Of a DNA stretch of 64,000 bases, positions 25,739-57,829 are shown one piece after another. The DNA comes from a virus. A model generated the notes under the pieces. The model had not been told where the DNA came from, did not search any database, and worked only from the letters and a program-made list of their open reading frames with translations. Made by a program: the position numbers and the translations under genes. The number at the start of each line of letters is the position of its first letter. The stretch's first letter is position 1. Where the stretch lies: the IMG/VR virus record IMGVR_UViG_3300029555_000004, one strand, 5' to 3'.

Positions 25739-25951
25739 TTTGCAGTATTTAATATGCTGTAAAGGATTTTAAGCTTTCATAAGAAACACCTATAGCCTTC
25801 TAGCCTAGATGGGGCTGATTAAAGGGACTTCAAATATCCCGGAAGGCGTATCTGAAGTATCAGGAGTATTTCAGAAAACCTTTGTTATAGTTGGTGGTTA
25901 AGAACTGTAACAGTGCCAGTTTGGTTACCAGTATTGCCAACTGGTATCTCA

Positions 25952-26024
25952 GGAAGCTTAGTTCAGCGGTAAGAGCAACGGCCTCATAAGCCGTAAGTCC
26001 TGGGTTCGAATCCCAGAGCTTCCA
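25952..26024 (+). tRNA. tRNA-Met (anticodon CAU; elongator or Ile2-type, not initiator)
   Basis: Acceptor GGAAGCT/AGCTTCC, anticodon arm ACGGC-CTCATAA-GCCGT, T-arm CTGGG-TTCGAAT-CCCAG. Confidence 0.9.
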
Positions 26025-26373
26025 TTTCTTCTAAATGCCATTCATCCGTAATATGGGTGGAAAAAACTTCCAGTTGAGCGTGTGGATCAGGTAAATTATA
26101 GGTGCGATACGGCGCAGCCTAAATGGATCTGGTTTCCAAGCTGGAATGCATCTTGGAGTTAAAGAAATCAGCGCAGCGCACGCTGATTAAAGGAGTTTTC
26201 AAAAGATGCGAACCATAAGCCATTAAAGTTGTGCATAAAAATACTCGTGGAGCATACCACGGTTATCAAAAAGCCGCCAGGGTTGCCAGTAAGCGTACCG
26301 CAAATAAAGAAAACTGGATAGTGGAAAGCATAACACGATAAACCTATTGCTAACCCGGTTTTTCCGGGTTATT

Positions 26374-26445
26374 CGGAAAGTGCAAGTAACTGGGAACGGC
26401 CTGGTCGTAGACTAGGTCTTAATGGTTCGAATCCATTCTTTCCGT
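26374..26445 (+). ncRNA. tRNA-like RNA with degenerate D-arm (anticodon-position GUA)
   Basis: Perfect acceptor CGGAAAG/CTTTCCG and T-arm AATGG-TTCGAAT-CCATT; arm CCTGG-TCGTAGA-CTAGG; no pairable D-stem. Confidence 0.4.
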
Positions 26446-26446
26446 T

Positions 26447-26555
26447 CCGTATAGTGGCGAAATATGTAGACGCTATTGTGGTAGCATAGGTTTCAACCCA
26501 CAACTTAGGTGACCTAAGTCGACAGCATGATAGGTGTAAATCCTATCCTATACGG
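26447..26555 (+). ncRNA. oversized type-II tRNA-like RNA (~108 nt)
   Basis: 8-bp acceptor CCGTATAG/CTATACGG, Leu-like D-arm TGGCGAAATATGTAGACGC, variable hairpin CTTAGG-TGA-CCTAAG, T-arm ATAGG-TGTAAAT-CCTAT; anticodon region non-canonical. Confidence 0.35.
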
Positions 26556-26588
26556 ACGTTTGGCGTGTTGAGTGATAACACACCTGAT

Positions 26589-26725
26589 TGAAAAGTGGCG
26601 GAACTATTGACGGTGATGAATCCGATACAATAGAAAGGCAGACGCAGAGGATAGTACATCATAATGGGTGAGTATGTGTCTTAGGACATGGGATGTACAT
26701 AGAAGTTCAAATCTTCTCTTTTCAA
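26589..26725 (+). ncRNA. 137-nt RNA with tRNA-like acceptor/T-arm minihelix
   Basis: Acceptor TGAAAAG/CTTTTCA 7/7, T-arm AGAAG-TTCAAAT-CTTCT, D-arm-like TGGCGGAAC...GCAGACGC split by a CTATTG/CAATAG hairpin; no 7-nt anticodon loop. Confidence 0.35.
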
Positions 26726-26948
26726 TTCTATCTACCAAGTGTAGATTGGAAATCTGACTTTAGCATAGCTATTGTTAGTTCTCGCACATAAATGAGGATT
26801 TGTTTGTGTGCGTTCGTGCAGGCATATAGACGCAACTCACTAGCGATCTTGTGCAAAAACTTTTTAGAGAGATAAGACCAATGCCCGTGAGGAGTGATAG
26901 TCGGGGATTCTAAAAAAATCATCTTGTTTAGCGTTTGAGGATGAAAAA

Positions 26949-27020
26949 AGAAACATAGCTCAGTGGTAGAGCAATGATATCCAATATCATGTGACACAGG
27001 TTCGATTCCTGTTGTTTCTA
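26949..27020 (+). tRNA. tRNA-Trp (anticodon CCA)
   Basis: Acceptor AGAAACA/TGTTTCT, D-arm GCTC-AGTGGTA-GAGC, anticodon arm ATGAT-ATCCAAT-ATCAT, T-arm ACAGG-TTCGATT-CCTGT. Confidence 0.9.
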
Positions 27021-32678: not shown

Positions 32679-33101
32679 ATGATGACTACAGCTCAATATT
32701 TACGCCAGATTGAAAATTATGATAACAGAATCAAAAATAAGCTTATCGAAGAAGAACAGCTCAGTTCTCTTTCCACAAGTGTATCTGCAATTCCTGTTGG
32801 AGAAAAGGTACAAACTTCTGTAAAACGTGATCCAATGGGAGATATGGTTGCAAAGATATTTGATCTGCGAGAAGAGATTTCAAAAATGATATCCGAATTT
32901 TTACAAAAAAAACAGGAAATAGTCCGAACCATAGAACAGGTTGAAGACCCGTTGCTATACAACATACTATTTAAGCATTATGTTGAGTACAAATCTTTGG
33001 TTCGTATCGCAGATGAGATGGGATATTCCGAAATACATATGAAAAGAATGCACTTAAAAGCCATAGCAGAAGTAAAAAAGATAAAAGGTTTTGAAAGATG
33101 A
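32679..33101 (+). CDS. DUF1492/sigma-70 region-4-like late transcription regulator
   Basis: N-terminal YLRQIENYDNRIKNK, C-terminal HTH LLYNILFKHYVEYKSLVRIADEMGYSEIHMKRMHLKA. Confidence 0.6.
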   Translation: MMTTAQYLRQIENYDNRIKNKLIEEEQLSSLSTSVSAIPVGEKVQTSVKRDPMGDMVAKIFDLREEISKMISEFLQKKQEIVRTIEQVEDPLLYNILFKHYVEYKSLVRIADEMGYSEIHMKRMHLKAIAEVKKIKGFER

Positions 33102-33142
33102 TACTAAAGTATACTGAATGATACCACCAATATGTGTAAAAT
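33100..33142 (+). promoter_or_regulatory. conserved late box, copy A
   Basis: GATAC-N15-GATAC around AGTATACT, then TATGTG-TAAAAT; near-identical at 44890 and 59955. Confidence 0.6.
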
Positions 33143-33152
33143 ATAAAGTAGA

Positions 33153-33186
33153 GCATTGGATTAAAATATCCAGTGCTTTTTATTTT
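33153..33186 (+). terminator. leader terminator after box A
   Basis: GCATTGGA/TCCAGTGC stem, 8-nt loop, TTTTTATTTT. Confidence 0.7.
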
Positions 33187-33195
33187 GCAGAAAGG

Positions 33196-34677
33196 ATGGT
33201 TCGGCTCGTGAGAAATACAATGAATTTTGTAGATTTATGCCGAGGTGAGTTCGGGCGAAAAGTAGCCTACACAGGCGTTGACCGAATCACTCCACAAAAT
33301 GTAGTAAAAGTAGTATCAGATACAATTGGCATACATAATAGAAACCGAACATTGATTGATTACTTGTATCGGTATATGAAAGGCGATCAGCCGATATTAT
33401 ACCGAAACAAAATAGTCCGACCAGAAGTTAATAACAGAGTGGTCGAAAATCACGCATTTGAAACTGTAAAATTTAAAGCTGGACAGATTTGTGGGGAGCC
33501 AATCCAATATGTATGTAAAAAGAAAAATGCAGACAAAAAAATAAATGAGCAAGTTGATTTGTTGAATGATTATCTGGATGAAGCCAATGCAGATGCAAGA
33601 AACATCCAGAGGGCAATATACCAAAGTGCAACAGGAACTTCCTATAAGGCTATTCTGAAAGAAGAGGACTGGACAAAAAACGGAGATTTACCACCGTTTA
33701 GAATCTTCATTCCGTATCCTGGTGATTGTTACATTGTATACTCACAGAGAAATGGGAAACCAATGCTTTCCGTGCAGATTTTAAAAGATGAAGATGAACA
33801 GCAATATTATTTGTGCTATTCAAAGAACCAGTTTTTTGAAATCAAGAATGGAAAAGTAACTAACTACGGCATCAATGGTTTTGGTGGTATTCCAATCGTT
33901 GAATGTCCGAATAATCACGACAGACTTTCGGATGTTGAAATTGCAATCACCTTATTTGATGCAATTAACAAATATCAGTCTGATAGATTAAATGGCGTGG
34001 AACAGTTTGTGCAAGCCTTTATGAAGTTTAAGAACTGCGAGGTAGACGAAAACGAGTTTTTGAAAATGGTAAAACTTGGTGCTATCTCTGTTAAAGATAC
34101 CGGAAATGGATGTCAGTCGGATGTTGAACTGATGACCGCTGAATTGAATCAATCAGAGAGCCAGGTTGCAAAGGATGATATCTACAATAATATGCTGATT
34201 GTAGAAGCAATGCCAAACCGACAAAGCAATAGTGGAGGAGATACAGGAAATGCCGTATACCTTCGTAATGGATGGGATTTTGCAGAGAGAGATGCAAAAT
34301 TGGTAGAAGCATTCACCAAGGAAGCTGAAAAGGAATCTGCCAGAATTATTCTAAATATTATCCGTGGCACGTCAAATGATGTTAATATCTCAACCCGAGA
34401 TTTCGATGTGAAGATAACCAGAAACCCAACAGACAATATGCTTGTAAAAGCACAGGCACTTGATTATCTGTTTAAAAATAAAATCCATCCGCTTATTGCA
34501 CTAATTACTTGCGGTTTATTTAGTGATCCACAGAAAGTTTATGAAATGAGTTTACCGTATCTGGGAACTATTTACCCGGAACTGGCAGACCCGGAAGCAG
34601 AAATGCAGAAAGCGCAACAATTACTGGATGAAAAATTTCAGAATCCAATCAATAAAGGCGTGATAGATAATGAATAA
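33196..34677 (+). CDS. portal protein (SPP1 gp6-like)
   Basis: Size, position after terL, SPP1-type portal N-terminal pattern; start ambiguous (ATG 33196, GTG 33208 or ATG 33220). Confidence 0.8.
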   Translation: MVRLVRNTMNFVDLCRGEFGRKVAYTGVDRITPQNVVKVVSDTIGIHNRNRTLIDYLYRYMKGDQPILYRNKIVRPEVNNRVVENHAFETVKFKAGQICGEPIQYVCKKKNADKKINEQVDLLNDYLDEANADARNIQRAIYQSATGTSYKAILKEEDWTKNGDLPPFRIFIPYPGDCYIVYSQRNGKPMLSVQILKDEDEQQYYLCYSKNQFFEIKNGKVTNYGINGFGGIPIVECPNNHDRLSDVEIAITLFDAINKYQSDRLNGVEQFVQAFMKFKNCEVDENEFLKMVKLGAISVKDTGNGCQSDVELMTAELNQSESQVAKDDIYNNMLIVEAMPNRQSNSGGDTGNAVYLRNGWDFAERDAKLVEAFTKEAEKESARIILNIIRGTSNDVNISTRDFDVKITRNPTDNMLVKAQALDYLFKNKIHPLIALITCGLFSDPQKVYEMSLPYLGTIYPELADPEAEMQKAQQLLDEKFQNPINKGVIDNE

Positions 34678-36073: not shown

Positions 36074-36418
36074 ATGGCTTTTATGAAAACAGAGCAGTAT
36101 GAGTCCACTCCAAATATTCTCGAATCCGAGGTCGGACTTGTGCTTAAAACCTACACAGCAGATCAGACAAATGCTGAAACAGTTGGAACTAAGAAAATTA
36201 TTAAAGCAGGTTCCGTATATCCAACAAATGCGACAGGTGCAATCGGTATTGTATTTGAAGATGTTGATATGACAGATGATACCAAGAGACCAATTTCCGT
36301 GATTGTCGCAGGACGTGTTCTCGAAAAGAGACTTCCGGTAACAGTTGACACTACTGCAAAAACAGAGCTTGAAAAAGCCGGAATTGTTTTTGTAGTCACA
36401 GAAGACCCAGTATTTTAA
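36074..36418 (+). CDS. putative head decoration/accessory capsid protein
   Basis: Position between scaffold and major capsid; no clear motif. Confidence 0.35.
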   Translation: MAFMKTEQYESTPNILESEVGLVLKTYTADQTNAETVGTKKIIKAGSVYPTNATGAIGIVFEDVDMTDDTKRPISVIVAGRVLEKRLPVTVDTTAKTELEKAGIVFVVTEDPVF

Positions 36419-36431: not shown

Positions 36432-37469
36432 ATGCCATTTAATGTATTAGAAACAATCACAGAGGAAGAGAGACTTAATTTCTCCCAGAGTTTTGATGTA
36501 AAAAGACCTGGCATCCTTGGTACCATTTTCCCGGATACAAAAACACAATATTTGAAAGCCGAATACTACAGACTTATGGCTGGACAGCGACTGCCAGAGG
36601 TAGCTTTTGTTCACGCACTTGATACCGAAGCAGAAATCGGTTCCAGACCTGGTTTCGAAAAGGTATTGACCGAGAAACTTTTCATTAAGAGAAAAATCAA
36701 TCAGTCTGAGAGATTACAGCAGGCTATTGAAAATGGTGTTCCAGATGACAATAATCTCAAAAAATTTGTATTTGACGATGCAGCCAATCTTTTTGAGGGC
36801 GTAGTCGCAAGGGCGAATGTAATGAAAGGCCAGTTCCTTTCCACTGGTATTGTAAAAATCAAGGAAAATCATGTGGATATGAGCATTGATTACGGCGTTA
36901 CATCTGATGCAAAAGTAACACTCACTGATTGGTCTAAGCCAGACGCAGATATCATGGGCGATATCCAGAAGATGGTAGCCATTGCAGAAGATAACGGATA
37001 TGTGGTAAACAAAGCTCTTACTTCTCTCAAAATGATTAATTACATGAGAAACAATACTGCAATGCAGACCGCTGTTCTTGGAGCTGCAAACAAACGTCTT
37101 CTGACAAAACAGGAGCTTACAAATCTGCTTATGCAGGAGTACGGATTCACAATTGATCGTTGTGATGAAAAATATCGTTACAGAAAAGCAGACGGAACTC
37201 TGAAAACAGGAAGATACTTCAAAGAAGATGTGTTTACTTTGTATGAAGCAAATGCGAATGGCTCCTTTGGCTCCGGACTTTGGGGTGTAACTCCAGAGGA
37301 AACGGAATACAGACAGTTCATCCAGGAAGAGAACCGTTCTTTCGTAACTCTGTCCATGTGGGCTACACCAGATCCAGTTGCAGTATGGACAAAAGCATCC
37401 GGTATGTTCGTTCCTGTTGCACCAAAAGCCAACGGCGGTATCGTAATCGGTACCAAGGCGGGGGAATAA
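36432..37469 (+). CDS. major capsid protein (capsid protein E-like)
   Basis: 345 aa, position, N-terminal MPFNVLE...LNFSQSF pattern. Confidence 0.8.
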   Translation: MPFNVLETITEEERLNFSQSFDVKRPGILGTIFPDTKTQYLKAEYYRLMAGQRLPEVAFVHALDTEAEIGSRPGFEKVLTEKLFIKRKINQSERLQQAIENGVPDDNNLKKFVFDDAANLFEGVVARANVMKGQFLSTGIVKIKENHVDMSIDYGVTSDAKVTLTDWSKPDADIMGDIQKMVAIAEDNGYVVNKALTSLKMINYMRNNTAMQTAVLGAANKRLLTKQELTNLLMQEYGFTIDRCDEKYRYRKADGTLKTGRYFKEDVFTLYEANANGSFGSGLWGVTPEETEYRQFIQEENRSFVTLSMWATPDPVAVWTKASGMFVPVAPKANGGIVIGTKAGE

Positions 37470-37998: not shown

Positions 37999-38105
37999 GA
38001 TGGTGTGTGCGTGATACGTCAATCCTCCCACGTATCGCAGGGGTGCTTCAAATTAGGTGGGTAGAAGCAATATCTAAAAAATGGGAGTGATGGAAAGGAA
38101 TAGCG

Positions 38106-38417
38106 ATGGGATGTGAACACGAGTGTATCAACGAACACCGCTTGAAAGAATTGGAAAGTGCCGTCCATGAGATGAAAGAAAAGCATTCCAAAAGGGATGG
38201 AGTTTTTTTTGAACGTATCAATGCTTTGGAACAGAAAATTGCTTTATACAACAATGACCTGGGACACATTAAGGATACAGTTGACGAAATGAACGACAAT
38301 TTAAAATCACTCATGGAAAAGCCAGGAAAGTTACAGGACAAAATAATTGCTTATGTCATAACTGGCATAATTGGTATTGTTTTAGGCTTTGCCCTAAAAG
38401 GCATTTTCCCGGTGTAA
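38106..38417 (+). CDS. XhlA-like membrane protein
   Basis: HRLKELESAVHEMKEKH coiled coil, EKPGK, single C-terminal TM IIAYVITGIIGIVLGFAL as in PBSX XhlA. Confidence 0.55.
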   Translation: MGCEHECINEHRLKELESAVHEMKEKHSKRDGVFFERINALEQKIALYNNDLGHIKDTVDEMNDNLKSLMEKPGKLQDKIIAYVITGIIGIVLGFALKGIFPV

Positions 38418-38449
38418 ATATTGATTCCACTAACAGGGAGGACAGTGGA

Positions 38450-38686
38450 ATGGATGATTATAAAGACTTTTCAGAAGATGAAAGAATCTTCTATTTGCGT
38501 GAAGCTGGATTTGATTCCAGAGAAAAGGAGTTATTCCGATTGCGTGTCTATGAAGAAAAAACGCTTGCAGAAGCTTCAGAAATCATGGGCTACAGCACGA
38601 GAACCGTAGACCGCATAAACAGAAAATTAAAAAAGAAAATTATGAAAGTTGCCCCGATGTATTGTCGGGGCTTTTCTTTGTATTAA
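38450..38686 (+). CDS. mini sigma-70 region-4-like HTH protein (78 aa)
   Basis: REKELFRLRVYEEKTLAEASEIMGYSTRTVDRINRKLKKK. Confidence 0.6.
   Translation: MDDYKDFSEDERIFYLREAGFDSREKELFRLRVYEEKTLAEASEIMGYSTRTVDRINRKLKKKIMKVAPMYCRGFSLY
38651..38679 (+). terminator. intrinsic terminator inside the last codons of the sigma-like gene
   Basis: GCCCCGA-7 nt-TCGGGGC then TTTTCTTT. Confidence 0.85.
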
Positions 38687-38692
38687 TAGAAA

Positions 38693-38759
38693 ATGGCGTA
38701 TTTATGGCGTTATCATGGCGTGTTAATCAACCTCTTATTATTGTAAAATATAGTTATAA
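38693..38759 (+). promoter_or_regulatory. ATGGCGT x3 (11-bp period) upstream of a -10-only promoter
   Basis: Repeats at 38693, 38704 and 38715; TGTAAAAT at 38752-38759; no -35 match. Confidence 0.55.
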
Positions 38760-38779
38760 AAACAAGGGAGGTTTGAGAT

Positions 38780-39277
38780 ATGCAGTATGGTAATCCGTAT
38801 TTTGCACAACCATTTCAACAAATACAGCCGTATCAAGATAGATTAGCACAATTACAGAATAGTTATCAGCAGGCAATGCCATACGGGCAGGCGCAGATTC
38901 AGCAACCAATACAACAAATGCCACAAGTACCACAAATCCCCATGTTGCAAGGACAGATGGTCGATGGTATTGATACCGTAAAGGCAAAAGACGTAGATAT
39001 GTCTGGAAACCCTGTTTATTATCCAAAAACAGATGGAACAGAAATATATAGAAAACAATTACAGGCAGATGGAAGAAGTAGAATTTTTGTTTATCGACTT
39101 ATAAATCCGGAAGAACAACAGCAACCAAAGGCAGAAGAAAAACCAATTGACATAGAAGCTATGTTTAATCAGCTTCGGAACGATGTTTGTTCTGAGATTT
39201 CCGAAATAAAGAGTATGTTTCCGACACAAATGTCGGGAACACCGGAACTCAAGCAGAATGGAGGTAAACAGAGATGA
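38780..39277 (+). CDS. Gln/Pro-rich protein, unknown function
   Basis: N-terminal ~55 aa are about one-third Gln (QPFQQIQPYQDRLAQLQNSYQQ...); GGGAGG RBS. Confidence 0.6.
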   Translation: MQYGNPYFAQPFQQIQPYQDRLAQLQNSYQQAMPYGQAQIQQPIQQMPQVPQIPMLQGQMVDGIDTVKAKDVDMSGNPVYYPKTDGTEIYRKQLQADGRSRIFVYRLINPEEQQQPKAEEKPIDIEAMFNQLRNDVCSEISEIKSMFPTQMSGTPELKQNGGKQR

Positions 39278-39519
39278 ATTTTAGTCCAAACGCCATGATG
39301 AAAAAGCAATTTGAGAAAATGATTACTCAGAGGTTCGGAAGTGTTGATAACATGATAAACGATATGAGTAAATTTGCAGGGAATAATCCAACATTAAAAA
39401 ATGCGTTGGATTTATACAAAAAAGGTGATACAGACCAGTTGCATCAAATACAGCAAAATGTATTTAATGAAAAACACTTATCACCAGATGGAATTATACA
39501 GAAATTCCTTGGATTATAA
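39274..39519 (+). CDS. hypothetical protein
   Basis: ORF track; 4-nt overlap. Confidence 0.55.
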   Translation: MNFSPNAMMKKQFEKMITQRFGSVDNMINDMSKFAGNNPTLKNALDLYKKGDTDQLHQIQQNVFNEKHLSPDGIIQKFLGL

Positions 39520-39615
39520 CACTTCCCCATAATTGGGTGATTAAGAATCGCTACAATTTGGGACGACAGCCGCGGATGTCTCCTATTGTAAATAAAATTT
39601 AAGGAGACTAAAAAC

Positions 39616-40425
39616 ATGATGAATGGTTCAAATTACAGCCTTAGCGACATTGCAGCTGCTACAGGCTCTAATAACCGTGCCAATGATATGTGGGGCGGTG
39701 ATGGCTTTTCACTTATCTGGCTCGTCCTAATCTTCGCAATCTTCGGCTGGGGAGGTTTTGGCGGCTGGGGCGGCGGCTTTGGTGGTAACGGTGGAAACGG
39801 TGCGAACGGTGCCGGCTTCCAAGGATGGGCTACCCGTTCAGATATTAATGAGGAATTCGCCCTTAATGATATTCAGAATGGTATCAGAGGTATTCAGCAG
39901 GGTATCTGTGACAGCACATATTCTCTTAACAATACCATGCAGAGTGGCTTTAATGGTATGAATGTCGGAATGCTTCAAGGCTTTAATGGCGTTCAGCAGG
40001 CAATCAATGCTGATACTGTAGCCGGTATGCAGAATACCAACGCATTACAGTCTCAGTTAGCAAATTGTTGCTGCGAAACAAGAGAAGCAATCCAGGGCAT
40101 CAATTATAACCTTGCCACTAACACTTGTGCTCTCCAGAACACAATGAACAACAACACAAGAGATCTTCTGGAAAACCAGAACAGCAACACAAGAGCAATC
40201 CTTGACTTCCTGACTAACGATAAGATTGCAACATTACAGGCAGAGAACTCTGATCTGAAACGTGCTGCATCCCAGGATCGCCAGTCTGCATTGCTTACAA
40301 CAGAGATGTACGCACAGGCTCAGAGATTAATCAATGCAATCAACCCGGCTCCGATTCCTGCATTCCAGGTTCCAGCTCCATATGCATACGCAGGATGTAA
40401 TACATATGGTAACGGTTGTTGCTAA
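39616..40425 (+). CDS. Gly-rich/Asn-Gln-rich membrane-anchored protein with Cys clusters
   Basis: TM LIWLVLIFAIFGW followed by GGFGGWGGGFGGNGGNGANG, internal CCC, C-terminal GCNTYGNGCC; AAGGAG RBS. Confidence 0.6.
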   Translation: MMNGSNYSLSDIAAATGSNNRANDMWGGDGFSLIWLVLIFAIFGWGGFGGWGGGFGGNGGNGANGAGFQGWATRSDINEEFALNDIQNGIRGIQQGICDSTYSLNNTMQSGFNGMNVGMLQGFNGVQQAINADTVAGMQNTNALQSQLANCCCETREAIQGINYNLATNTCALQNTMNNNTRDLLENQNSNTRAILDFLTNDKIATLQAENSDLKRAASQDRQSALLTTEMYAQAQRLINAINPAPIPAFQVPAPYAYAGCNTYGNGCC

Positions 40426-40504
40426 GTAACTCACCCTTAGAGGTTGACTAAATTCTAAGAGGTGGGTTGCGGCTCACCTCTTATTTTGATTGAGAGGTAG
40501 AAAT

Positions 40505-40930
40505 ATGAGTTGTAAAAATGTTTGTAAGCTCTGCAACCGTCTTGTAATAAGCCAAGCTGTTGCGTTTACAGGAGGTAATCTTGTAATCACACTCCCAGAA
40601 GGCAGTTACAACAATGGAGAGAAATATTGTATTGTTGTTGCACAAAGTATACCAGAAGCCACTACAATTACTGCTCCGGTAATGATTCAGATAGGAACAG
40701 GAACAACTTTGTATCCGCTAGAAAATCGTTGCTGTGCACAGATTACGGCTTGTGGAATAAGAACCAGAACGAAGTACGCAACCAGAGTAGCTACAAGTGC
40801 AACTGGCGGAGTATTCAAGATGTTAGGAAATCCGGCTTGTAGTCCGAGCAACAATTTGAAAGCAATTAATGGTACAGCCCCAACGACAGAAGCACCTGTT
40901 ACGCAGGCTGTTAGAAAGGGGGCACTGTAA
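40505..40930 (+). CDS. Cys-rich protein, unknown function
   Basis: MSCKNVCKLCN...RCCAQITACG; GAGAGG RBS. Confidence 0.55.
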   Translation: MSCKNVCKLCNRLVISQAVAFTGGNLVITLPEGSYNNGEKYCIVVAQSIPEATTITAPVMIQIGTGTTLYPLENRCCAQITACGIRTRTKYATRVATSATGGVFKMLGNPACSPSNNLKAINGTAPTTEAPVTQAVRKGAL

Positions 40931-41562
40931 TGCATAAAGTTGCAATGGAAATGGGAAAATGGGCTATGGAAAAAGCCAAAACACATGGCTTTGATAATCT
41001 TAGTGCTCAAGACTGGGACGATTTGAAAGACTGCATGGAAGCAGTAAAATGTGCGATTTGCGCTGATAAAGATTATCGTATTGTGGAAGCTATGGATGAA
41101 TGCGAACAGGAAGAAAAGTATCTTGGACGCATGGGATATGACCGTTACCGCTATTCAAATGGGCGTTTCGCTCCAAAAGGTAGGGGAACCAGAAAAGGCT
41201 ATAGACCGTATCTGTATATGCAGGATGATGACTGGATGGATGAGTATTTAAACAATCCAGAATTTGAGCGCAATATGTACCGCATGGGATATCATCCAGA
41301 TCGTAGTGATATGGAAAATGATGGTATGAATATGAATTGGAAGAAATCCAGATATGGCGAATCCTATGATAAATACGATGAGAATCGTAGACACTATCAT
41401 GATTCCAAAGACACGGAATCCAAGAGAAAAATGGATGATTCCATGAAAGAATACACATCAGATATTATTCGTAATCTCACGGAAATGTGGTCAGATGCAG
41501 ATGCAACACTCAGACAGTCAATGAAAGCTGACCTGACCAGACTTGTACAGCAGATGAACTAG
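40930..41562 (+). CDS. Tyr/Arg/Asp/Met-rich low-complexity protein
   Basis: ORF track; abuts the upstream stop. Confidence 0.55.
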   Translation: MHKVAMEMGKWAMEKAKTHGFDNLSAQDWDDLKDCMEAVKCAICADKDYRIVEAMDECEQEEKYLGRMGYDRYRYSNGRFAPKGRGTRKGYRPYLYMQDDDWMDEYLNNPEFERNMYRMGYHPDRSDMENDGMNMNWKKSRYGESYDKYDENRRHYHDSKDTESKRKMDDSMKEYTSDIIRNLTEMWSDADATLRQSMKADLTRLVQQMN

Positions 41563-41581
41563 AGCAATAAATGAATTAAGT

Positions 41582-41615
41582 CCTTGTCGCGAATTAATGC
41601 GGCAGGGGCTTTTTT
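41582..41615 (+). terminator. intrinsic terminator
   Basis: CCTTGTCGC/GCGGCAGGG stem then CTTTTTT; followed by AGAAAGGATGGT, the same 12-mer found after the box A terminator. Confidence 0.7.
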
Positions 41616-41638
41616 CGTAGAAAGGATGGTAAGAAACC

Positions 41639-42025
41639 ATGCTGAAACAATTCTATATGAACGGGTACTTATGGAGAGTTCGCTTTGTTTCTCCCCATGA
41701 TAATGTTTTGATTGACCGCACAGGAAAACGCACACTTGCTGTATCTGATTACTCTACAATGACAATTTCGATTGCAAACAACTTGCATGGTGAACTTCTA
41801 AATCGTGTATTTATTCATGAATTAGGGCATTGTGTGATGTTCAGCTACGGTTTACTTACAGAGCTTCACCGCATGGTTAAGAAACGATACTGGGTAGATG
41901 CAGAGGAATTTGTATGCAATATTCTGGCAGACTATGGACAGTTTGTTATTGGCACAGCCAGAGATATCTTAGGAAACCAGTTCACATATGTAGCTCCCAT
42001 TGGGGCAGAAAGGATGATTGCGTAA
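41639..42025 (+). CDS. small HExxH zinc-metallopeptidase-like protein
   Basis: FIHELGHCV motif. Confidence 0.55.
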   Translation: MLKQFYMNGYLWRVRFVSPHDNVLIDRTGKRTLAVSDYSTMTISIANNLHGELLNRVFIHELGHCVMFSYGLLTELHRMVKKRYWVDAEEFVCNILADYGQFVIGTARDILGNQFTYVAPIGAERMIA

Positions 42026-42268
42026 ATGGCAAAAGCAGAAAACACAATTATTTTTGATGGCATTCAGTACAATCCAGGTGATGAATTGCCGGATTTAGGC
42101 AGTTGGGTATGTACAGATGCAAAAGGTATGGTTCGTGATTACGAGGGGCTTTCAAAAGATGTATCAAAGCTCCCACATTATGTACAGAGCGGTTCTTCGG
42201 CGTTGTGCCTTGATACCTCTGAATTATACGAGTATCACAAACCTACAGACACATGGTACAGGTTGTAA
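42026..42268 (+). CDS. hypothetical protein
   Basis: ORF track. Confidence 0.5.
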   Translation: MAKAENTIIFDGIQYNPGDELPDLGSWVCTDAKGMVRDYEGLSKDVSKLPHYVQSGSSALCLDTSELYEYHKPTDTWYRL

Positions 42269-42279
42269 AGGAGAAGCGT

Positions 42280-43719
42280 ATGGCATTAACAGCAAAGAAA
42301 GTATATGCAATATTAAAACGCCAGATTTCCGATATGGAATCACAACTGAATCATCCAGTTAGATATAAAGGAACAGTCGCTACAGCAGATTTACTCCCAC
42401 TAAATCCAGCCATTGGAGACATGTATAATATCGAATCCAAATCCATCTATGGCGGAGCAGGAATGAATGTGGCATGGAACGGCGTAGTTTGGGACACTAT
42501 GGGCGCTCCAATTGATATGTCACTGTATCTCACAAAAGAAGAATCAGAGACGGTAATACAAAGATTAGTTACGGAATATTTTGAAAAGAATCCAGTCAAG
42601 CCTGGAGCCACGACAGAACAGGCACAGCAGATCGAGCAGAACAAGACAGACATTGCTTCACTGAAAACGGAAACTGGTTCACTAAAGGAAGATTTAGAGA
42701 TTTCGCTATTAGAGAATGACAGATTATATGAAGGTACAAATCTTGCCGAAAAATTCAAAGATGAAATCGCTAATTACTCAGACATCTGGCAGTGGATCAA
42801 AGCCAGAATCAAGGCAGGAAACTTTGCGGGTATTCATGTAAATGATTTTATCCGCTGGCAGACAACAGATAAGAAATGGATTGAATCCCGTATTGCTGGT
42901 ATCAACACATATAAGAGATATGGAAACCAGGCGGCGCCAGACCACATTGATTTCATATCAAAGGATTTGTGGCCGACTCTGCATGTTATGCAGCCAGTCA
43001 ACTATAACAATGGCGTAATCCCTATCGAAAATCTGTCAGGGGATGGCGCAAAAACAACATTTACTCTGGTAAATGAAATGGCGGGGATCGCGTCTGTTAC
43101 AGTCGGCGGTACCGCAGTGACAAGCTACACATACGATATTGATACCCACACAATTACTTTCAGCGAAGCACCAGTGACGGGAACGAATAATATCGTGGTA
43201 ACCGGAACTGGTTCAATGCACCCTTGGTTATCATCAGATCTGTATTTATACGCAAACAGTCTTAGAGGTCATGTACCGAGTGGTACAAGCAAGACCTCAC
43301 CTGTTAAGTTAGTAGATTACAGGGACGATGGTATTTGGTCTAAACTGCCAGATGAGCTGAAATCCGTAATCGTAACGAAACGCGCATTACTCTCTCAGCG
43401 ATATTCAGCATCTGGGGTGTTATCAAATAATAATTCCTGGGGCTGGCAGGATACGGGTAAACTCTGGATCCCGTCAGAAATTGAGGTGTATGGGCATGGT
43501 GTATGGGCAAATAACGGATATGATAAAGGTGGATTTGTCCAGTATCCGATATTCAACTGCAATATGGGACGTATAAAAGGACTGGGTGACTGGTGGTTGA
43601 TTTCTGATTCCGATGGCAACACCAGCTACTTCTGTGGTGTCACCGGCGGCGGTAATGCCAGCCACGCCGTTGCTTCCGCCACCTGGGTGGGGCTGCCCGT
43701 CTGCTTCCGAATTGCGTAG
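42280..43719 (+). CDS. fibre-like structural protein (head or tail fibre)
   Basis: N-terminal YKGTVATADLLPLNPAIGDMYNI...NVAWNGVVWD motif common in Firmicutes phage fibre proteins. Confidence 0.5.
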   Translation: MALTAKKVYAILKRQISDMESQLNHPVRYKGTVATADLLPLNPAIGDMYNIESKSIYGGAGMNVAWNGVVWDTMGAPIDMSLYLTKEESETVIQRLVTEYFEKNPVKPGATTEQAQQIEQNKTDIASLKTETGSLKEDLEISLLENDRLYEGTNLAEKFKDEIANYSDIWQWIKARIKAGNFAGIHVNDFIRWQTTDKKWIESRIAGINTYKRYGNQAAPDHIDFISKDLWPTLHVMQPVNYNNGVIPIENLSGDGAKTTFTLVNEMAGIASVTVGGTAVTSYTYDIDTHTITFSEAPVTGTNNIVVTGTGSMHPWLSSDLYLYANSLRGHVPSGTSKTSPVKLVDYRDDGIWSKLPDELKSVIVTKRALLSQRYSASGVLSNNNSWGWQDTGKLWIPSEIEVYGHGVWANNGYDKGGFVQYPIFNCNMGRIKGLGDWWLISDSDGNTSYFCGVTGGGNASHAVASATWVGLPVCFRIA

Positions 43720-43737
43720 TGAAAGGAGATTAAATCT

Positions 43738-43932
43738 ATGAATTATAAAGCCGAAATAGTAGCACTTAAAAGCTTACTCGCTGACACCGATTACAAGGCA
43801 TTAAAACATGCTGATGGTGCAATGAGTGATGAAGAATACGAGTCTGTTAGAGTACAGAGAGAAGAATGGCGTAGACTTATCAACGAATATGAAGAAAGAG
43901 TGAAAGATATGGATGAATCTGAGTTTATGTAA
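43738..43932 (+). CDS. hypothetical protein
   Basis: ORF track; AGGAGA RBS. Confidence 0.5.
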   Translation: MNYKAEIVALKSLLADTDYKALKHADGAMSDEEYESVRVQREEWRRLINEYEERVKDMDESEFM

Positions 43933-44889: not shown

Positions 44890-44933
44890 GATACCATAAT
44901 ATACTGAATGATACCAACTAATTATGTTATCAT
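44890..44933 (+). promoter_or_regulatory. conserved late box, copy B
   Basis: GATACCATAATATACTGAATGATACC ... TATGT-TATCAT; weaker hairpin AATGCG/CGCATT + T6 at 44962-44994. Confidence 0.55.
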
Positions 44934-45471: not shown

Positions 45472-45765
45472 ATGGATCAGATTTTAAGTTATGTAAAGCC
45501 AGAATTACTTATTGTCGTTGTATTTCTTTATTTTATCGGAGAAATGATTAAAAAGTCAGAGAATATTTCTGACAAATTTATTCCAATGATTTTAGGAATT
45601 CTTGGTGTATTAATTTGCGGTCTTTATGTTTTTGCAACATCTACAGTTTCCGGTTCACAGGAAGTTGCAATGGCACTGTTTACCGCAATTACACAAGGCG
45701 TTATCGTTGCCGGATTAAGTAATTATGTAAATCAAATTATTAAGCAAGCAGGAAAAGAAGAGTAG
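45472..45765 (+). CDS. holin-like protein (phage_holin_4/phi LC3-type pattern)
   Basis: YVKPELLIVVVFLYFIGEMIKK...DKFIPMILGILGV...ITQGVIVAGLSNYVNQIIKQ; three hydrophobic segments. Confidence 0.65.
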   Translation: MDQILSYVKPELLIVVVFLYFIGEMIKKSENISDKFIPMILGILGVLICGLYVFATSTVSGSQEVAMALFTAITQGVIVAGLSNYVNQIIKQAGKEE

Positions 45766-52225: not shown

Positions 52226-52339
52226 TGGTATAATTTTTTTAATGAAGAAGTACACACGGTCTTGATTTTTGAGCCGCTAAGAAGAAATTAACATTTCTCA
52301 ATTTTGAGGAATTTTTATCTTACTTGGCGGCTCTTTTTT
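52226..52339 (+). promoter_or_regulatory. extended -10 promoter followed by branched terminator
   Basis: TGGTATAAT at 52226-52234; stem GAGCCGCTAAG/CTTACTTGGCGGCTC (52271-52333) then T6. Confidence 0.5.
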
Positions 52340-52372
52340 ATTTTATCCATCAATATAAGGAGGAATGGAAGA

Positions 52373-53062
52373 ATGGGAAATGAAGTTTTAGTAACAAGCG
52401 AACAGACACCTATTGAGATTGCACTTGGGATTGACGAAGAAGGCATGACTACTGCAAGAAAACTATATTCATTTTTAGAACTTGCACAGGGACAATTTTC
52501 AAGATGGGCGAAAACAAATATTATCGACAATTCATTTGCGGTAGAAAATGAAGACTATTGGGGGTTCGACATTGATGTCGAGGGTAATAAAACTGTTGAT
52601 TATAAGATAACTGCCCATTTTGCCAAAAAACTTTCAATGCTATCAAAATCTGAAAGAGGAGAACAAGCAAGAAATTATTTTATTGGTTGCGAACAATCCT
52701 TAAAAATTGCTTTTAAAAAGCAGCGTGCAGCAGAACTTGAACGAGCCAAAGGAATAGCAGTAAGACAGGCATTGACAAAGGCAATCCAGCAATCTTCTGA
52801 AAATGAAAGAATGCACGGACATGCCTATTCTACATATACGGACGTTATTTACAAGTCCATATTTGGCAAAAACGCCAAGCAACTAAGAGAGGAATTCGGA
52901 ATCACAAAAAAAGAAAGTATGAGAGATTATTTTTCAGAAGAAGAGTTGGTGAAAGTTCAGAACGCAGAAATGCTTGTAAGTGCGTTGGTCGGATATGGCT
53001 GGGGGTATAACGAAATTAAAGAATTTATTCTGAATAAAGGAATTAATAAAATTGCGGCATAA
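52373..53062 (+). CDS. AntA/AntB-type antirepressor-like protein
   Basis: FSRWAKTNII...EDYWGF...DYKITAHFAKKLSMLSKSERGEQARNYFI; AAGGAGGAA RBS. Confidence 0.6.
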   Translation: MGNEVLVTSEQTPIEIALGIDEEGMTTARKLYSFLELAQGQFSRWAKTNIIDNSFAVENEDYWGFDIDVEGNKTVDYKITAHFAKKLSMLSKSERGEQARNYFIGCEQSLKIAFKKQRAAELERAKGIAVRQALTKAIQQSSENERMHGHAYSTYTDVIYKSIFGKNAKQLREEFGITKKESMRDYFSEEELVKVQNAEMLVSALVGYGWGYNEIKEFILNKGINKIAA

Positions 53063-53152
53063 ATTTTGATCTTTTAGACAGCTCGCATTTAAAATGAGGT
53101 CTGGAAATGTTCGATTTAAAATAGAACCTTACAATGGGGAGGGAAAGCAAAA

Positions 53153-53368
53153 ATGTCATATAAAAATTATTGCGTTGTAAGCAAAGAAGTGCTTCATAAT
53201 AGAAATATTTCCCTTGAAGCAAAGGGAATATACGCTTTAATGATGAGTGTTGGCAAAGATAATTTTAATGTAAAGGAATTATATGATCTTTCAAAAGAAG
53301 AAATAAATGTTATTGATAATGCGATAAATGAGTTAGAAAAACTCGGTTACGTAACTCTTGAAAAATAA
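53153..53368 (+). CDS. small winged-helix/HTH protein
   Basis: ISLEAKGIYALMMS...AINELEKLGYVTLEK pattern. Confidence 0.4.
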   Translation: MSYKNYCVVSKEVLHNRNISLEAKGIYALMMSVGKDNFNVKELYDLSKEEINVIDNAINELEKLGYVTLEK

Positions 53369-53500
53369 TTCGGTAAAATCAGTGGGCTAGGTTGGCCGCC
53401 GAAAAGCGTAATTCCATGATACGTCTGTCCACTGTTTTTATAAATCATGGGTCTGCGACAAGAAAGTAGTCACGCATTAACGACATGGAGGTTATCTAAT

Positions 53501-54670
53501 ATGAATTCTGAAATCAGAGAAATATCCCAAGAAGAAATAAAAGCGAGAGTAGCGTTTCTTTCATCCGCAAAATGTAATCATACACCACACAAATATATTG
53601 ATATTGCTGGTGGATTGATTGAGGGTACGCTATTATCAAGAATTTTATATTGGTTTTCTGAGGATAAAAATAAAAGAAGAAAAGTGCGCATTTTTAAAGA
53701 CGGCCATTATTGGATTGCAAAACAGAGAAAAGATTGGCAAGAAGAAATTAGAATTACAGAACGCCAATACGATAAGGCAATTAAAGAACTGAAAAATAGA
53801 GGGTTTGTTGAACTCGCAAAATATAAGTTTAATTCCATGCCTACAGTACATATTCGCCCATTGTGGGAAAATATCAATAAGGCTGTTGCTGTTTGGGAAA
53901 GTGAACTTGAAAAAGAAATTGTTTCCGAATTTCAAAATGAAGCAAACGGGAATAACGAAAAATGTAATTCCCAAGGGAATGACGAAAAATGTAATTCGGG
54001 AATTACAGAAGGAAGCACTTCTTTAACATTACCTACTAACAATGATTATCATAATAACAATGATTACTTTCAAGAGAAAACAGAACCAGACTTTATTGAT
54101 AATAAAGAAAAAAAGACTTTATCTTATACAGATAAAGATAATCAGACTTCTGCTCCTAATAATTATAATAAATTAAATATATATAATATACCTCCTAGAA
54201 CCAAGGAGCAGAAAGCCAACCGCTATAATTTTAGGAACCAATCATCTCTCTTAGATTATAAAGACGAGGATGTTGAGAAATTGGTAACCGAAATATACGA
54301 AAGCATTTACGGAGCCAAAGAGAATATTTTTGAAGACCATGACATTTGCTTATCTATATTTTTAATTAAGGAGTTTTTTAAGAAATATCAAAAGTACCGT
54401 GAAGAGAAACATCCGATGGTTACACAAAGCCAAGCTGAAAATATTCTGAAAATGATACGCAATCCAGATACAGATATGGCAAAAGATGATTTGGTAGACG
54501 ATAAAGAAGAACCACTATTCTATCTTGACATGATGGAGGAACATTTTAAGACAAAGTGGGGGAAAAGAAATGGCGGAGATTTTGATTATAGAATCATGTT
54601 ATTTTTTAAGGACACCACACAAAATATGTTATATCAAAGAGTGAAACAGAAAAGGGAGGACACATTATGA
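53501..54670 (+). CDS. putative replication-initiator-like wHTH protein
   Basis: GTLLSRILYWFSED...YWIAKQRKDWQEEIRITERQYDKAIKELKNRGFVE; internal 27-bp tandem repeat. Confidence 0.4.
   Translation: MNSEIREISQEEIKARVAFLSSAKCNHTPHKYIDIAGGLIEGTLLSRILYWFSEDKNKRRKVRIFKDGHYWIAKQRKDWQEEIRITERQYDKAIKELKNRGFVELAKYKFNSMPTVHIRPLWENINKAVAVWESELEKEIVSEFQNEANGNNEKCNSQGNDEKCNSGITEGSTSLTLPTNNDYHNNNDYFQEKTEPDFIDNKEKKTLSYTDKDNQTSAPNNYNKLNIYNIPPRTKEQKANRYNFRNQSSLLDYKDEDVEKLVTEIYESIYGAKENIFEDHDICLSIFLIKEFFKKYQKYREEKHPMVTQSQAENILKMIRNPDTDMAKDDLVDDKEEPLFYLDMMEEHFKTKWGKRNGGDFDYRIMLFFKDTTQNMLYQRVKQKREDTL
53948..53999. repeat. 27-bp tandem duplication with palindromic ends inside the rep-like gene
   Basis: GGGAATAACGAAAAATGTAATTCCC / GGGAATGACGAAAAATGTAATTCGG. 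Confidence 0.7.
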
Positions 54671-55299
54671 AAAGAATCAAAGCACTACTGGCAACCATTA
54701 TCTGTATTTGCGTTATCACAGGGCTAACAGGCTGTGCAGCGAATGACGATTACATGAATGACGTGAAAGGAAATCTTTCTGGTAACAGCTACACAATCTA
54801 TACCTACGACAACTACGGTCAAAAGGTTATGACTACCACTGGGGACAAGATCAACATTGCCGGGAATAAAACCAAATCCAAGGGCTACGATAGTGAGGGA
54901 AATGAAACAACCAGCTACGATGTATCTTCCGTCATTACAATTCTGATTGACGGTAAAGAAATTGAAAGCTGTGGTGATACTTGTATTTTTGAGCAAAAAG
55001 GATTGAAGCCAGAGGTTGATTTTACCCAGGAGGATATAATTAGCCATTCAACTGGGAAGATTTCAGAGAACACATACATAGCCGGGATTGTGAATTATTA
55101 TAAAAATTATTTCGGGAAATCTAGGGTTGTAGTAATAAAATCTCAACTCGGGCAACCGATAGCCGCATATTCTGGTGACGAGGTGTTCTGGAAAATCCCG
55201 GACGATCTGCCTAAAATGACAAAGCTAATGATTGACGGAAAAGCTCTTTATATCCACAGGGCAAATTTCCAGATTATTGATAAAGAATTACTGCAATAA
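54667..55299 (+). CDS. lipoprotein
   Basis: Signal peptide with lipobox LTGC (MKRIKALLATIICICVITGLTGCAAN). Confidence 0.7.
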   Translation: MKRIKALLATIICICVITGLTGCAANDDYMNDVKGNLSGNSYTIYTYDNYGQKVMTTTGDKINIAGNKTKSKGYDSEGNETTSYDVSSVITILIDGKEIESCGDTCIFEQKGLKPEVDFTQEDIISHSTGKISENTYIAGIVNYYKNYFGKSRVVVIKSQLGQPIAAYSGDEVFWKIPDDLPKMTKLMIDGKALYIHRANFQIIDKELLQ

Positions 55300-55406
55300 A
55301 ATAGCCAAATTCGTCTTAAAACCTCTTACCAGATAAAATATAGGCACAAGACAAGAAAATTGAAATTTGAACAAAGAAATCAACTAATTGTGGAGAATTA
55401 AAACAT

Positions 55407-55739
55407 ATGAGCCAAATAGGAACAGAACTTCCAACAGAATATTCAGACCGTTTCGATAAATTACGACAGAATAGGGTTGAGGTAAGCTTTTACAAGTATG
55501 GTACGGCAAAGGATAACTTCGGGGAGAAGTTGGTAAACGCCTTGGAATCCCACGATATGTGCATCAAAAAGTATCGTGAGACTGGGAATACAGAATATCT
55601 TTGCGATGCAGCAAATTATCTCATGTTTGAGTTTATGTATCCACAAATTCAAGGCGCATACTTCAAGGCAACAGACAGCGGAGAAAGTGCCGGAGTTGCC
55701 GGAACACCGATTAATCAGCTGAAGGAGAAGTGGTATTAA
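55407..55739 (+). CDS. hypothetical protein
   Basis: ORF track. Confidence 0.5.
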   Translation: MSQIGTELPTEYSDRFDKLRQNRVEVSFYKYGTAKDNFGEKLVNALESHDMCIKKYRETGNTEYLCDAANYLMFEFMYPQIQGAYFKATDSGESAGVAGTPINQLKEKWY

Positions 55740-55762
55740 CGAAAAGGAGATGTAAAAATATA

Positions 55763-56050
55763 ATGAACAGACCATTATTTGAGCCAGGGGATATTGTACA
55801 GCACTTCAAACGAGAAACCATCAAGGAGCCACACAACAACGAATATTTGTATGAGATTGTTGGATTCGCCCAACATACGGAAACAGGAGAAGCCCTGGTG
55901 ATATACAGGGCATTGTACGGTGGTAAGAAATTATATGCCAGACCATCAAAAATGTTCTACGGAAAAGTAGATCGGAACAGGTACCCGGAAATTCAGCAAG
56001 AGTACAGATTTGTGAAGTATCATGGAGTGCTTTACGCTGATGGACTTTAA
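55763..56050 (+). CDS. DUF1653 domain protein
   Basis: VQHFKRE...YEIVGFAQHTETGEALVIYRALYG...YARPSKMF matches the DUF1653 pattern. Confidence 0.6.
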   Translation: MNRPLFEPGDIVQHFKRETIKEPHNNEYLYEIVGFAQHTETGEALVIYRALYGGKKLYARPSKMFYGKVDRNRYPEIQQEYRFVKYHGVLYADGL

Positions 56051-57820: not shown

Positions 57821-57829
57821 TAAAAATAA

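Follow-up and report, generated by a model that had tools for sequence, protein, structure and literature searches.

Accessory cassettes and variable fiber loci are a known kind of feature in mosaic phage genomes. In the late/lysis region of the Bacillus subtilis prophage PBSX, xpf, which encodes a sigma-like positive control factor, is followed by xhlA, xhlB (holin), and xlyA (endolysin). In the Roseburia phage Shimadzu, the tail fiber orf22 bears variable repeat VR1 of an active diversity-generating retroelement (DGR) and is the proposed receptor-binding protein (10.1101/575076). Here, we analyzed an island of eleven genes, g1 to g11, in a 64,000-nucleotide stretch of viral DNA (IMG/VR virus record IMGVR_UViG_3300029555_000004; the whole stretch is hereafter called the window). 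The window is a segment of a tailed-phage genome with structural genes on either side of the island, which separates the gene for a head-tail connector-like protein (g0, left flank) from that for a neck-position protein (g12, right flank). All eleven open reading frames (ORFs) listed in an earlier note on this DNA are present on the + strand, filling 38106-43932 (Table 1), but where that note saw one island, comparison with relatives resolves three modules with evidently different histories: part A (g1 and g2), part B (g3 to g8, hereafter the cassette), and part C (g9 to g11).

Each of the described systems shares some traits with this locus and lacks others. As in PBSX, an XhlA-type membrane protein occurs together with a small sigma-related putative late-gene activator, and in a prophage of Anaerotruncus colihominis DSM 17241 (L019) the g1 homologue leads an XhlA-holin-GH25 endolysin series that is followed by the cassette. 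In the window, however, the XhlA-like gene lies 7 kb from the holin with no endolysin nearby, so the holin/endolysin adjacency of XhlA-type genes is missing; moreover, g2 has region 4 only in its 78 amino acids (aa), and PBSX has nothing like g3 to g8. The morons of lambdoid phages are likewise mobile and dispensable extra units with a promoter-like region and terminators in a late operon, whereas the unit described here is a multigene operon with a putative dedicated regulator that would be made from the late transcript, is found also in non-temperate crAss-like phages, and has no relative in which the flanking genes are adjacent. The fiber-like protein g10 resembles Shimadzu orf22 up to its tip, and two relatives (L003 and L055) carry DGR parts in the same slot, but g10 lies between head and neck genes and not in a baseplate cluster, differs in its N-terminal 100 residues, and has no DGR in the window. 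The crAss-like phage cr52_1 encodes a full-length g5 homologue (gp23) together with a DUF7841 protein (gp22) and, upstream, an FtsL/LysB-like membrane coiled-coil protein; its gp24 and gp25, however, have no detectable homology to g6 and g3, and the label "spike protein/glycoprotein" given to gp23 is unsupported. Finally, i-spanins and the T4 holin T are like g5 in architecture only, with one N-terminal hydrophobic helix, a long helical domain with conserved cysteines, and a location near lysis genes, but neither sequence nor profile similarity links them to it, no partner lipoprotein or lipobox protein was found in the cassette, and the host here, of the Blautia/Clostridia lineage, is monoderm.

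The cassette is a very widespread unit for which we found no description in the literature. We found no paper on DUF7841, and in the literature on XhlA and lysis in Clostridia, on Clostridium perfringens phages, on Butyrivibrio phage Ceridwen, and on crAss proteomics we found nothing on the cassette proteins. We found no proteomic study of a cassette-bearing phage, and the GuFi-phage preprint, which reports DGRs in prevalent Firmicutes phages, does not describe the cassette.

Modular make-up of the connector-neck interval

Through the conserved neck protein g13, we retrieved 80 loci, all at least 92% identical in g13, of which 74 hold both flanks; these close relatives come from human gut metagenomes as contigs of 75-84 kb. 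Connector and neck genes were described in the earlier note as normally contiguous, but g0 lies beside g12 in none of the 74, the shortest interval being 2,360 bp. Genes g1 to g3 are present in all of them and g1 to g8 in 73, and the insertion is evidently old and fixed in this lineage. In the wider phage world, the cassette is nonetheless foreign to this position: in most other phages it follows the lysis genes or lies elsewhere. The earlier view that the island genes do not belong to core morphogenesis is supported, and no homologue of any island product was found in well-studied siphoviruses.

In contrast to the constant g1 to g8, the stretch between g8 and g12 is variable. It is 0 bp in 21 of the 74 loci, where g12 directly follows g8, and reaches about 3.8 kb at most in the others, with unrelated fiber-like contents. 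The shortest interval belongs to L112 (IMGVR_UViG_3300045988_108573), which keeps g0 to g3 at 94-100% identity and has a single 352-aa ORF of GDSL/SGNH type (8509-9567) instead of g4 to g11. The constant g1 to g8, the variable slot, and L112 together indicate that parts A, B, and C evolve separately, and L112 that a genome can lose the core of part B and look intact otherwise. Separately, in two protein clusters (P0059 and P0060), a GDSL-lipase domain is joined to the first two-thirds of g5, pointing to this gene as the site of a recombination hot spot.

Judged by its gene content, part C is a hypervariable, swappable slot for virion fibers or adhesins. The 488-aa protein called fiber-like in the earlier note, g10, proved to be homologous to the receptor-binding fiber of Shimadzu, with residues 105-240 and 361-487, the C-terminal tip included, 43% identical to orf22 (E-values, 2e-28 and 4e-30); since this homology is genuine, the slot part at least is probably structural. 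The N-terminus of g10 (residues 10-130) is common to fibers with other C-termini, and the g9 homologues in L003 and L055 always lie just 5' of a g10-type N-terminus. Only six of the close relatives have g9 and the g10 N-terminus, and none has full g10 or g11, for which a single relative was found (L046). The slot mostly holds another fiber-like protein of up to 967 aa and a 106-aa protein instead, and in a few cases a reverse transcriptase.

The slots of L003 and L055 contain DGRs that look active and complete. In L003, the DGR (13481-16514) comprises a 508-aa target with its variable repeat (14905-15003), a template repeat (15077-15175), and a 384-aa reverse transcriptase with YMDD; in L055, a variable repeat and a template repeat lie at 15267-15597. 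Mismatches between the repeats fall at template adenines in 15 of 16 cases (L003) and 20 of 20 cases (L055). Through its similarity to Shimadzu orf22, g10 itself has a C-terminal variable-repeat domain of known type. tblastn searches with two reverse transcriptases and Avd found neither in the window (best E-value, 1.2), and its 64 kb contain no further copy of the 3' end of g10, as expected of a template repeat; about 15 kb of the genome lies outside.

The g3-g8 cassette and its putative control

Across bacterial and phage genomes, g3 to g8 behave as a horizontally mobile cassette whose conserved core, by synteny and sequence, is the g5-g6 pair. Counted as clusters at 90% protein identity, all of them unnamed, g5 has at least 7,884 and g6 3,858, versus 254 for the neighboring g12, one of which comes from Blautia sp. 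BCRC 81119. In bacterial data with one genome per species, g6 occurs in 78 loci, mostly of Oscillospiraceae, Lachnospiraceae, Ruminococcus, Blautia, Anaerotruncus, Flintibacter, and Acutalibacter; a few matches on metagenome-assembled genomes (MAGs) labeled Bacteroidales may be binning errors. The gene immediately follows g5 in 73 of 81 loci, and its product is 65-75% identical across hosts even though the surrounding structural proteins are unrecognizable. Homology also extends across phyla: full-length g5 homologues are encoded by cr52_1 (gp23) and by gene 36 of the Bacteroides uniformis phage C3_41T2LP, and the cross-phylum alignment (A4) has in common a Gly/Trp-flanked hydrophobic segment, an invariant CCC, SQ, PxPAY/F, and a C-terminal GCGC. 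DUF7841 is shared by cr52_1 gp22 and the protein at the g7 position of L019 (2e-13). By hhalign, there is no homology between g6 and crAss gp24/C3_35 (probability, 1%) or between g3 and crAss gp25/C3_34 (6%). Relatives of g5 are found in viruses predicted to infect Methanomassiliicoccales as well, and among about 50,000 deposited phage genomes every match comes from a gut or rumen anaerobe system. One 83-kb genome with such a predicted host (L172; BK063680.1, Caudoviricetes sp. vir335) combines a gene of the g5 family (phrog_16490) with a sequence that matches the N-terminus of g10. Either these modules are exchanged across domains of life or the prediction of an archaeal host should be re-examined.

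Thousands of gut-anaerobe phages carry the cassette, usually after the lysis genes. In L019, the order is XhlA-like gene, holin, GH25 endolysin, HExxH protein, region-4 helix-turn-helix (HTH) protein, g3-like, g4-like, g5, g6, DUF7841 protein at the g7 position, and host ruvC. Holin and endolysin genes likewise precede the cassette in bajarodcaudo virus 5, Butyrivibrio phage Ceridwen, and C. perfringens phage XP41-N3; Dulem virus 35 has it between its minor capsid and scaffold genes. Among 139 ORFs upstream of the cassette in 38 loci (within 4.2 kb), Pfam gave 10 matches to Sigma70_r4, 17 to cell-wall-hydrolase catalytic domains (some of these matches may share one protein), 2 to capsid families, and 2 to connector families; among 150 downstream ORFs in 39 loci (within 4 kb), it gave 8 matches to DUF7841, 12 to integrases or recombinases, and 10 to HTH_3, along with assorted host genes. 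Thus, the position of the cassette in the window is a minority arrangement.

The cassette proteins have compositions that agree with the five low-complexity or Cys-rich proteins described earlier, with g3 rich in Gln (18%), g5 in Asn (13%), Gly (13%), and Cys (eight residues), g6 in Cys, and g7 in Asp, Met, Lys, and Arg. In g5, a Gly-flanked hydrophobic segment at about residues 30-45 precedes long helices, the invariant CCC, and a C-terminal PxPAY/F and GCGC. Its AlphaFold model (predicted local distance difference test [pLDDT], 47), with helices at residues 30-42, 84-130, and 144-242, would fit, at low confidence, an anchored and probably oligomeric coiled coil. The family alignment of g6 (A1; 74% mean column identity) places the start at ATG 40505 and not at TTG 40490, and a Foldseek search of PDB with its model (pLDDT, 52.5) returned nothing at an E-value of 0.001 or better. 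No family match was found for g4 in Pfam, PHROGs, or NCBIfam; its positional homologues are in L003, L004, L019, L020, L022, L050, L055, and L073. Homologues of g7 are in L003, L004, L020, L030, L042, L044, L050, L055, L067, and L073; Pfam DUF7841 is found on its positional counterparts elsewhere but not on g7 of the window. The small HExxH protein of the earlier note is g8, with HELGH; it matches phrog_1233 at 2.9e-10 (6e-21 for the L019 homologue, with HEIVH) and the "PolyVal metallopeptidase" protein (gene 31) of C3_41T2LP at 8e-4 by blastp, and has no significant match to a curated peptidase family, Pfam Peptidase_M78 scoring an E-value of only 0.16. Pfam, NCBIfam, PHROGs, and PADLOC gave no informative match for g3 to g8, and sequence and profile searches of PDB (g5, g6, g8, g10, and the g3 and g5 families) gave nothing significant. 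A defense or antidefense system was rejected, as PADLOC models produced chance-level coiled-coil matches only (E-values above 1e-3), and a cluster for a ribosomally synthesized and posttranslationally modified peptide or bacteriocin was rejected since the cassette genes include no modifying enzyme, leader, or transporter.

Upstream of the cassette, part A provides a membrane protein and a candidate regulator. The earlier description of g1 as an XhlA-like membrane protein is supported by a full-length match to phrog_937 "hemolysin" (1.9e-13) and a C-terminal hydrophobic helix (hydropathy maximum, 2.23; residues 80-98), although the match to Pfam XhlA (PF10779; 3.5e-4, 21.1 bits) falls under the gathering threshold of 34.7; several weak coiled-coil family matches cover residues 10-80. 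An XhlA-like or FtsL/LysB-like gene lies upstream of the cassette in the window, L002, L003, L050, L055, L073, L019, and cr52_1. Similarly, the sigma-region-4-like character of g2 holds, with 29.9 bits against Pfam Sigma70_r4 (PF04545; cut-off, 24.1; residues 22-59) and a match to NCBIfam sigma70-ECF (TIGR02937) at 7.9e-9, whose score of 35.3 is under the cut-off of 42.9 and which covers model positions 116-163 of 165. Pfam and NCBIfam gave nothing beyond region 4, and region 2 was not found. Since g2 is only 78 aa long and has region 4 only, it cannot be a sigma factor, but it may be an activator of the cassette: its homologues lie just 5' of a g3 homologue in L002, L003, L004, L019, L050, L055, and L073. 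No promoter of its own was seen on inspection of the region or in a promoter scan.

The terminators noted earlier are predicted here as well. Taking a hairpin followed by a T-run as the criterion and comparing folding energy with shuffled sequence, we find three sites that fold far better than expected (T1, T2, and T3); a scan of 8.6 kb lists 14 terminator-like sites versus 5.2 expected. The tail of T1, GGGGCTTTTCTTTG, is kept in L089-L091, where degenerate heptamers of equal phase (ATGGCGG/GTGGCGA/GTGACGT) come right after the same terminator, as do three phased copies of ATGGCGT in the window, which has 10 copies of this heptamer versus 4.5 expected. These repeats form a putative operator for g2 next to a promoter-like region, and L003 has a matching CGTGTTAnTCA...TAAAAT layout. 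The repeats of the earlier "repeat-driven promoter" are thus real and keep their phase in relatives; the promoter itself remains putative, since it is read from the sequence and a generic scan did not list it, and its conservation in L003 and L089-L091 is consistent with such a role. At the other end, only 27 nt separate T3 from the start of g8. With no room for a promoter there, g8 to g13, including the neck genes, need read-through of T3. Therefore, although an HTH gene, a promoter-like region, and three terminators are present, the island is not transcriptionally sealed off.

Genome setting and other interruptions

Table 1. Positions of the island genes, putative control elements, and other features in the window
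Feature	Coordinates	Strand	Remarks
g1, XhlA-like, 103 aa	38106..38417	+	N-terminal coiled coil, C-terminal membrane helix
g2, sigma-70 region-4-type HTH, 78 aa	38450..38686	+	putative cassette activator
Terminator T1	38651..38671	+	9-bp stem, 6 GC pairs, T-run; -16.8 kcal/mol, z -4.1; overlaps 3' end of g2
Three ATGGCGT heptamers, putative g2 operator	38693..38721	+	starts 38693, 38704, 38715; exactly 11-bp spacing
Promoter-like region	38722..38749	+	weak -35-like GTTAAT, 16-nt spacer, -10 TAAAAT
g3, 165 aa	38780..39277	+	Gln/Pro-rich N-terminus, conserved central domain, C-terminal helix; phrog_21718 at 6e-18
g4, helical, Asn/Gln/Met-rich, 81 aa	39274..39519	+	positional homologues
g5, core protein, 269 aa	39616..40425	+	phrog_16490 at 1.5e-65
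Terminator T2, between g5 and g6	40456..40483	+	12-bp stem; -17.4 kcal/mol, z -2.8
g6, core protein, 141 aa	40505..40930	+	eight conserved Cys incl. N-terminal CxxxCxxC; basic
g7, low-complexity, Arg/Asp/Tyr/Met-rich, 210 aa	40930..41562	+	homologues in relatives
Terminator T3, after g7	41578..41611	+	13-14-bp stem; -26.7 kcal/mol, z -6.5
g8, putative zinc metallopeptidase, 128 aa	41639..42025	+	HELGH at residues 70-74
g9, first slot gene, 80 aa	42026..42268	+	76% identical homologues in L003, L055
g10, fiber/receptor-binding-type, 488 aa	42253..43719	+	similarity to Roseburia phage Shimadzu orf22
g11, acidic, last slot gene, 64 aa	43738..43932	+	ORF only
g0, left flank, head-tail connector-like, 106 aa	37678..37998	+	alignment with positional homologues of relatives
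g12, right flank, neck-position protein, 130 aa	43985..44377	+	position only
SPP1-type portal	33118-34677	+	listed ORF 519 aa
Mu-F-like protein and scaffold-position protein			encoded in the window
Small head protein	36074-36418		
Major capsid protein	36432-37469		Phage_cap_E match; followed by g0
Hol44-type holin	45472-45765	+	PF16079, 1.6e-27; between tail-terminator-like gene and major tail gene
Promoter-like repeat of the phage, GATACnAnAnTATACTGAATGATAC then TGTTATAAT	33100-33143, 44890-44933, 59955-59998	+	
AntA-type antirepressor-domain proteins (two)	52304-53062, 58454-59269		second interruption
DUF5052 protein	54667-55299		second interruption
Zinc-ribbon protein, 521 aa	56255-57820		second interruption
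HNH endonuclease	59499-59858		second interruption

The host of this phage lineage of about 80 kb is probably Blautia; two Blautia MAGs (L050 and L055) have the same gene order as the window. No direct Pfam or PHROG match was found for g0, and Phage_connect_1 (Pfam) is matched by two proteins from the upstream flanks of Blautia relatives; family searches gave no match for g12, whose neck role is assigned by position only. The window also encodes a major tail protein and a 1,711-aa tape-measure ORF. Its Hol44-type holin keeps its location in L003, L089-L091, and L112, far from any endolysin, and no endolysin was found among the window proteins scanned.

The island is not the sole interruption of the structural operon, since the holin sits between the tail-terminator-like and major tail genes and a 7.7-kb block follows the tape-measure gene. 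This second large interruption (52304-59900, + strand) reaches to the distal tail genes and also contains a 407-aa protein; just 5' of its ORF lies an int-alpA RNA (53380-53450, + strand; Rfam, 47.7 bits versus a gathering score of 35.8). The Rfam scan found only this RNA and tRNAs, every one outside the island; three tRNA genes at 25667-27020 (+ strand; Gln-TTG, Met-CAT, and Trp-CCA) are called by ARAGORN and Rfam alike.

A 25-nt element, GATACCATARTATACTGAATGATAC, occurs three times in the window versus zero expected; an extended -10 (TGTTATAAT in the best copy) comes about 10 nt after it, and there is no -35. Its copies lie just upstream of the portal gene, of the tail-terminator-like and tail genes, and of the distal tail genes, and none lies inside the island. 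The element is probably the activator-dependent late promoter of the phage. Next to its first copy, between the terminase and portal genes, a 140-aa protein (32679-33101, + strand) that matches Pfam DUF1492 (27.7 bits versus a cut-off of 21.5), with weak similarity to Sigma70_r4 and antiterminator Q, is a candidate late regulator; the possibility that g2 is its paralogue was rejected (blastp E-value, 0.25). The portal ORF is about 24-27 codons longer than the portals called in relatives (492-495 aa), and it shares its first codons with the promoter-like element; translation therefore probably begins at an ATG farther downstream.

Proposed role of the cassette and alternative explanations

The three-part make-up suggests that the island is add-on cargo and not core virion-building machinery. 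We propose, at about even confidence, that it holds three kinds of accessory cargo, of which part B would form a membrane-associated complex made very late under activation by g2. An ancestor of the lineage would have acquired these cargoes at a site between its connector and neck genes. Genes g1 and g2 would be transcribed with the head genes on a transcript ending at T1; g2 made from this late transcript would then bind the phased ATGGCGT repeats and switch on the promoter with its weak -35, so that g3 to g7 are expressed only once the late operon runs, as a "very late" class. The g5 protein, which has a hydrophobic anchor, a helix of about 100 residues that is probably oligomeric, and invariant cysteine clusters, would sit in the membrane, as would g1, with g3, g4, and g7 as low-complexity partners and g8 as a small HExxH peptidase. 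Such a complex could act on release or the cell envelope at the end of the lytic cycle and may need reduced thiols or bound metal, in keeping with its confinement to phages of strict anaerobes. The cassette would be dispensable for making particles, and slot C would hold exchangeable fibers or, in relatives, a DGR that mutates the fiber tip. We prefer a membrane role at the end of the lytic cycle because of the frequent adjacency to XhlA, holin, and endolysin genes, the hydrophobic helices, the location of the g2 gene within the late operon, and the presence of the cassette in non-temperate crAss-like phages.

Other explanations account for part of these observations. The cassette products could be virion accessories, with g5 a coiled-coil fiber or cement protein and g6 a cysteine cross-linked decoration on heads or necks, serving particle stability or gut adherence. 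The structural operon does contain the cassette both in the window and in Dulem virus 35, and in the window the fiber slot adjoins it, but its usual position is outside the structural module, after the lysis genes or near an integrase or host DNA, and it has a putative promoter and terminators of its own. Long helices are predicted for g5, yet a hydrophobic anchor is unusual among tailed-phage surface proteins; the labels "spike" or "viral fibre" that depositors gave to crAss-like homologues rest on insignificant coiled-coil similarity (E-values of 0.28-1.3 versus PDB), and the literature search yielded no proteomic evidence. In favor of a virion role, the C-terminal coil of C3_34, a neighbor of the g5 homologue in the Bacteroides phage, matches phrog_473 "virion structural protein" (1.4e-8), the distribution tracks habitat rather than host envelope type, and decorations are often dispensable, in line with L112. 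Taken together, we consider this explanation rather unlikely.

A prophage-expressed moron, that is, a membrane-located superinfection-exclusion or host-conversion module benefiting the lysogen, seems to us more improbable still. The promoter-like region and terminators bracket the cassette as they would a moron, but g2, the gene of the regulator, is part of the late operon, and no promoter of its own was seen. In many prophages, the cassette occupies the classic conversion locus between the endolysin gene and the integrase, attachment site, or host genes, it includes membrane proteins, and it is dispensable and replaceable; seven co-conserved genes are, however, many for an exclusion function, and PADLOC gave no match. 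Because the crAss-like phages, which are not known as lysogens, carry full-length g5 homologues with the DUF7841 partner, and because the regulator gene lies inside the late operon, a lytic role is favored over lysogenic conversion. Hardly credible, and rejected, is a set of spore-coat-like or exosporium-like proteins that would modify Clostridia spores under a sporulation-type sigma fragment. The Gln-rich, Cys-rich, and Tyr/Arg-rich compositions resemble known coat proteins, the hosts are mostly Clostridia, and the best equivalog-level NCBIfam matches of g2 are region 4 of SigF and SigG, but these are far under their cut-offs, no coat family in Pfam or NCBIfam matches at E-values up to 0.1, and g5 with its DUF7841 partner occurs in phages that infect non-sporulating Bacteroidota or Butyrivibrio or are predicted to infect methanogens.

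Several points weigh against our preferred reading of a very late, membrane-associated complex. No characterized homologue was found for g3 to g8. Because canonical holins and endolysins are present apart from the cassette, it is not an obvious requirement for lysis. Its presence in phages of monoderm, diderm, and archaeal hosts argues against an envelope-specific lysis step. In g5, the hydrophobic core spans no more than about 13-15 residues, the topology of the protein cannot be read from the flanking charges, and the AlphaFold models of both g5 and g6 are of low confidence. Moreover, the cassette lies inside the structural operon in two lineages, and an Asn/Thr/Gly-rich composition of low charge would suit virion fibers. 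The phased operator repeats were not found in distant loci, and L112, from which the replaceability of the cassette is read, is a metagenomic contig whose viability is assumed.

A broader and more tentative view, which we hold to be possible but less than likely, is that the g5-g6 cassette with its DUF7841 or low-complexity partner and small metallopeptidase is an unrecognized functional module of phages of strict gut anaerobes, found in viruses of Clostridia, in crAss-like phages of Bacteroidota, and possibly in viruses of methanogenic archaea. It would encode a thiol- or metal-dependent, membrane-anchored coiled-coil complex acting in the last minutes of infection or on the released particle, linked to habitat and not to host, with a spread comparable to that of holins.

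Gut phage genomes consist mostly of genes of unknown function. The present analysis defines a bounded, recurrent unit of this dark matter, with a core pair, a putative regulator and operator, and a natural replacement variant, and it is experimentally tractable through cultivable entry points such as A. colihominis DSM 17241, Blautia lysogens, C. perfringens phages, Butyrivibrio phage Ceridwen, and Bacteroides phage C3_41T2LP. The slot next to it indicates that exchangeable adhesins, in some cases diversified by a DGR, can be encoded at a locus close to the head genes, which bears on host-range evolution in prevalent Firmicutes phages. Should the cassette prove to act in release or in the survival of particles, the phage life cycle would gain a step specific to anoxic habitats.

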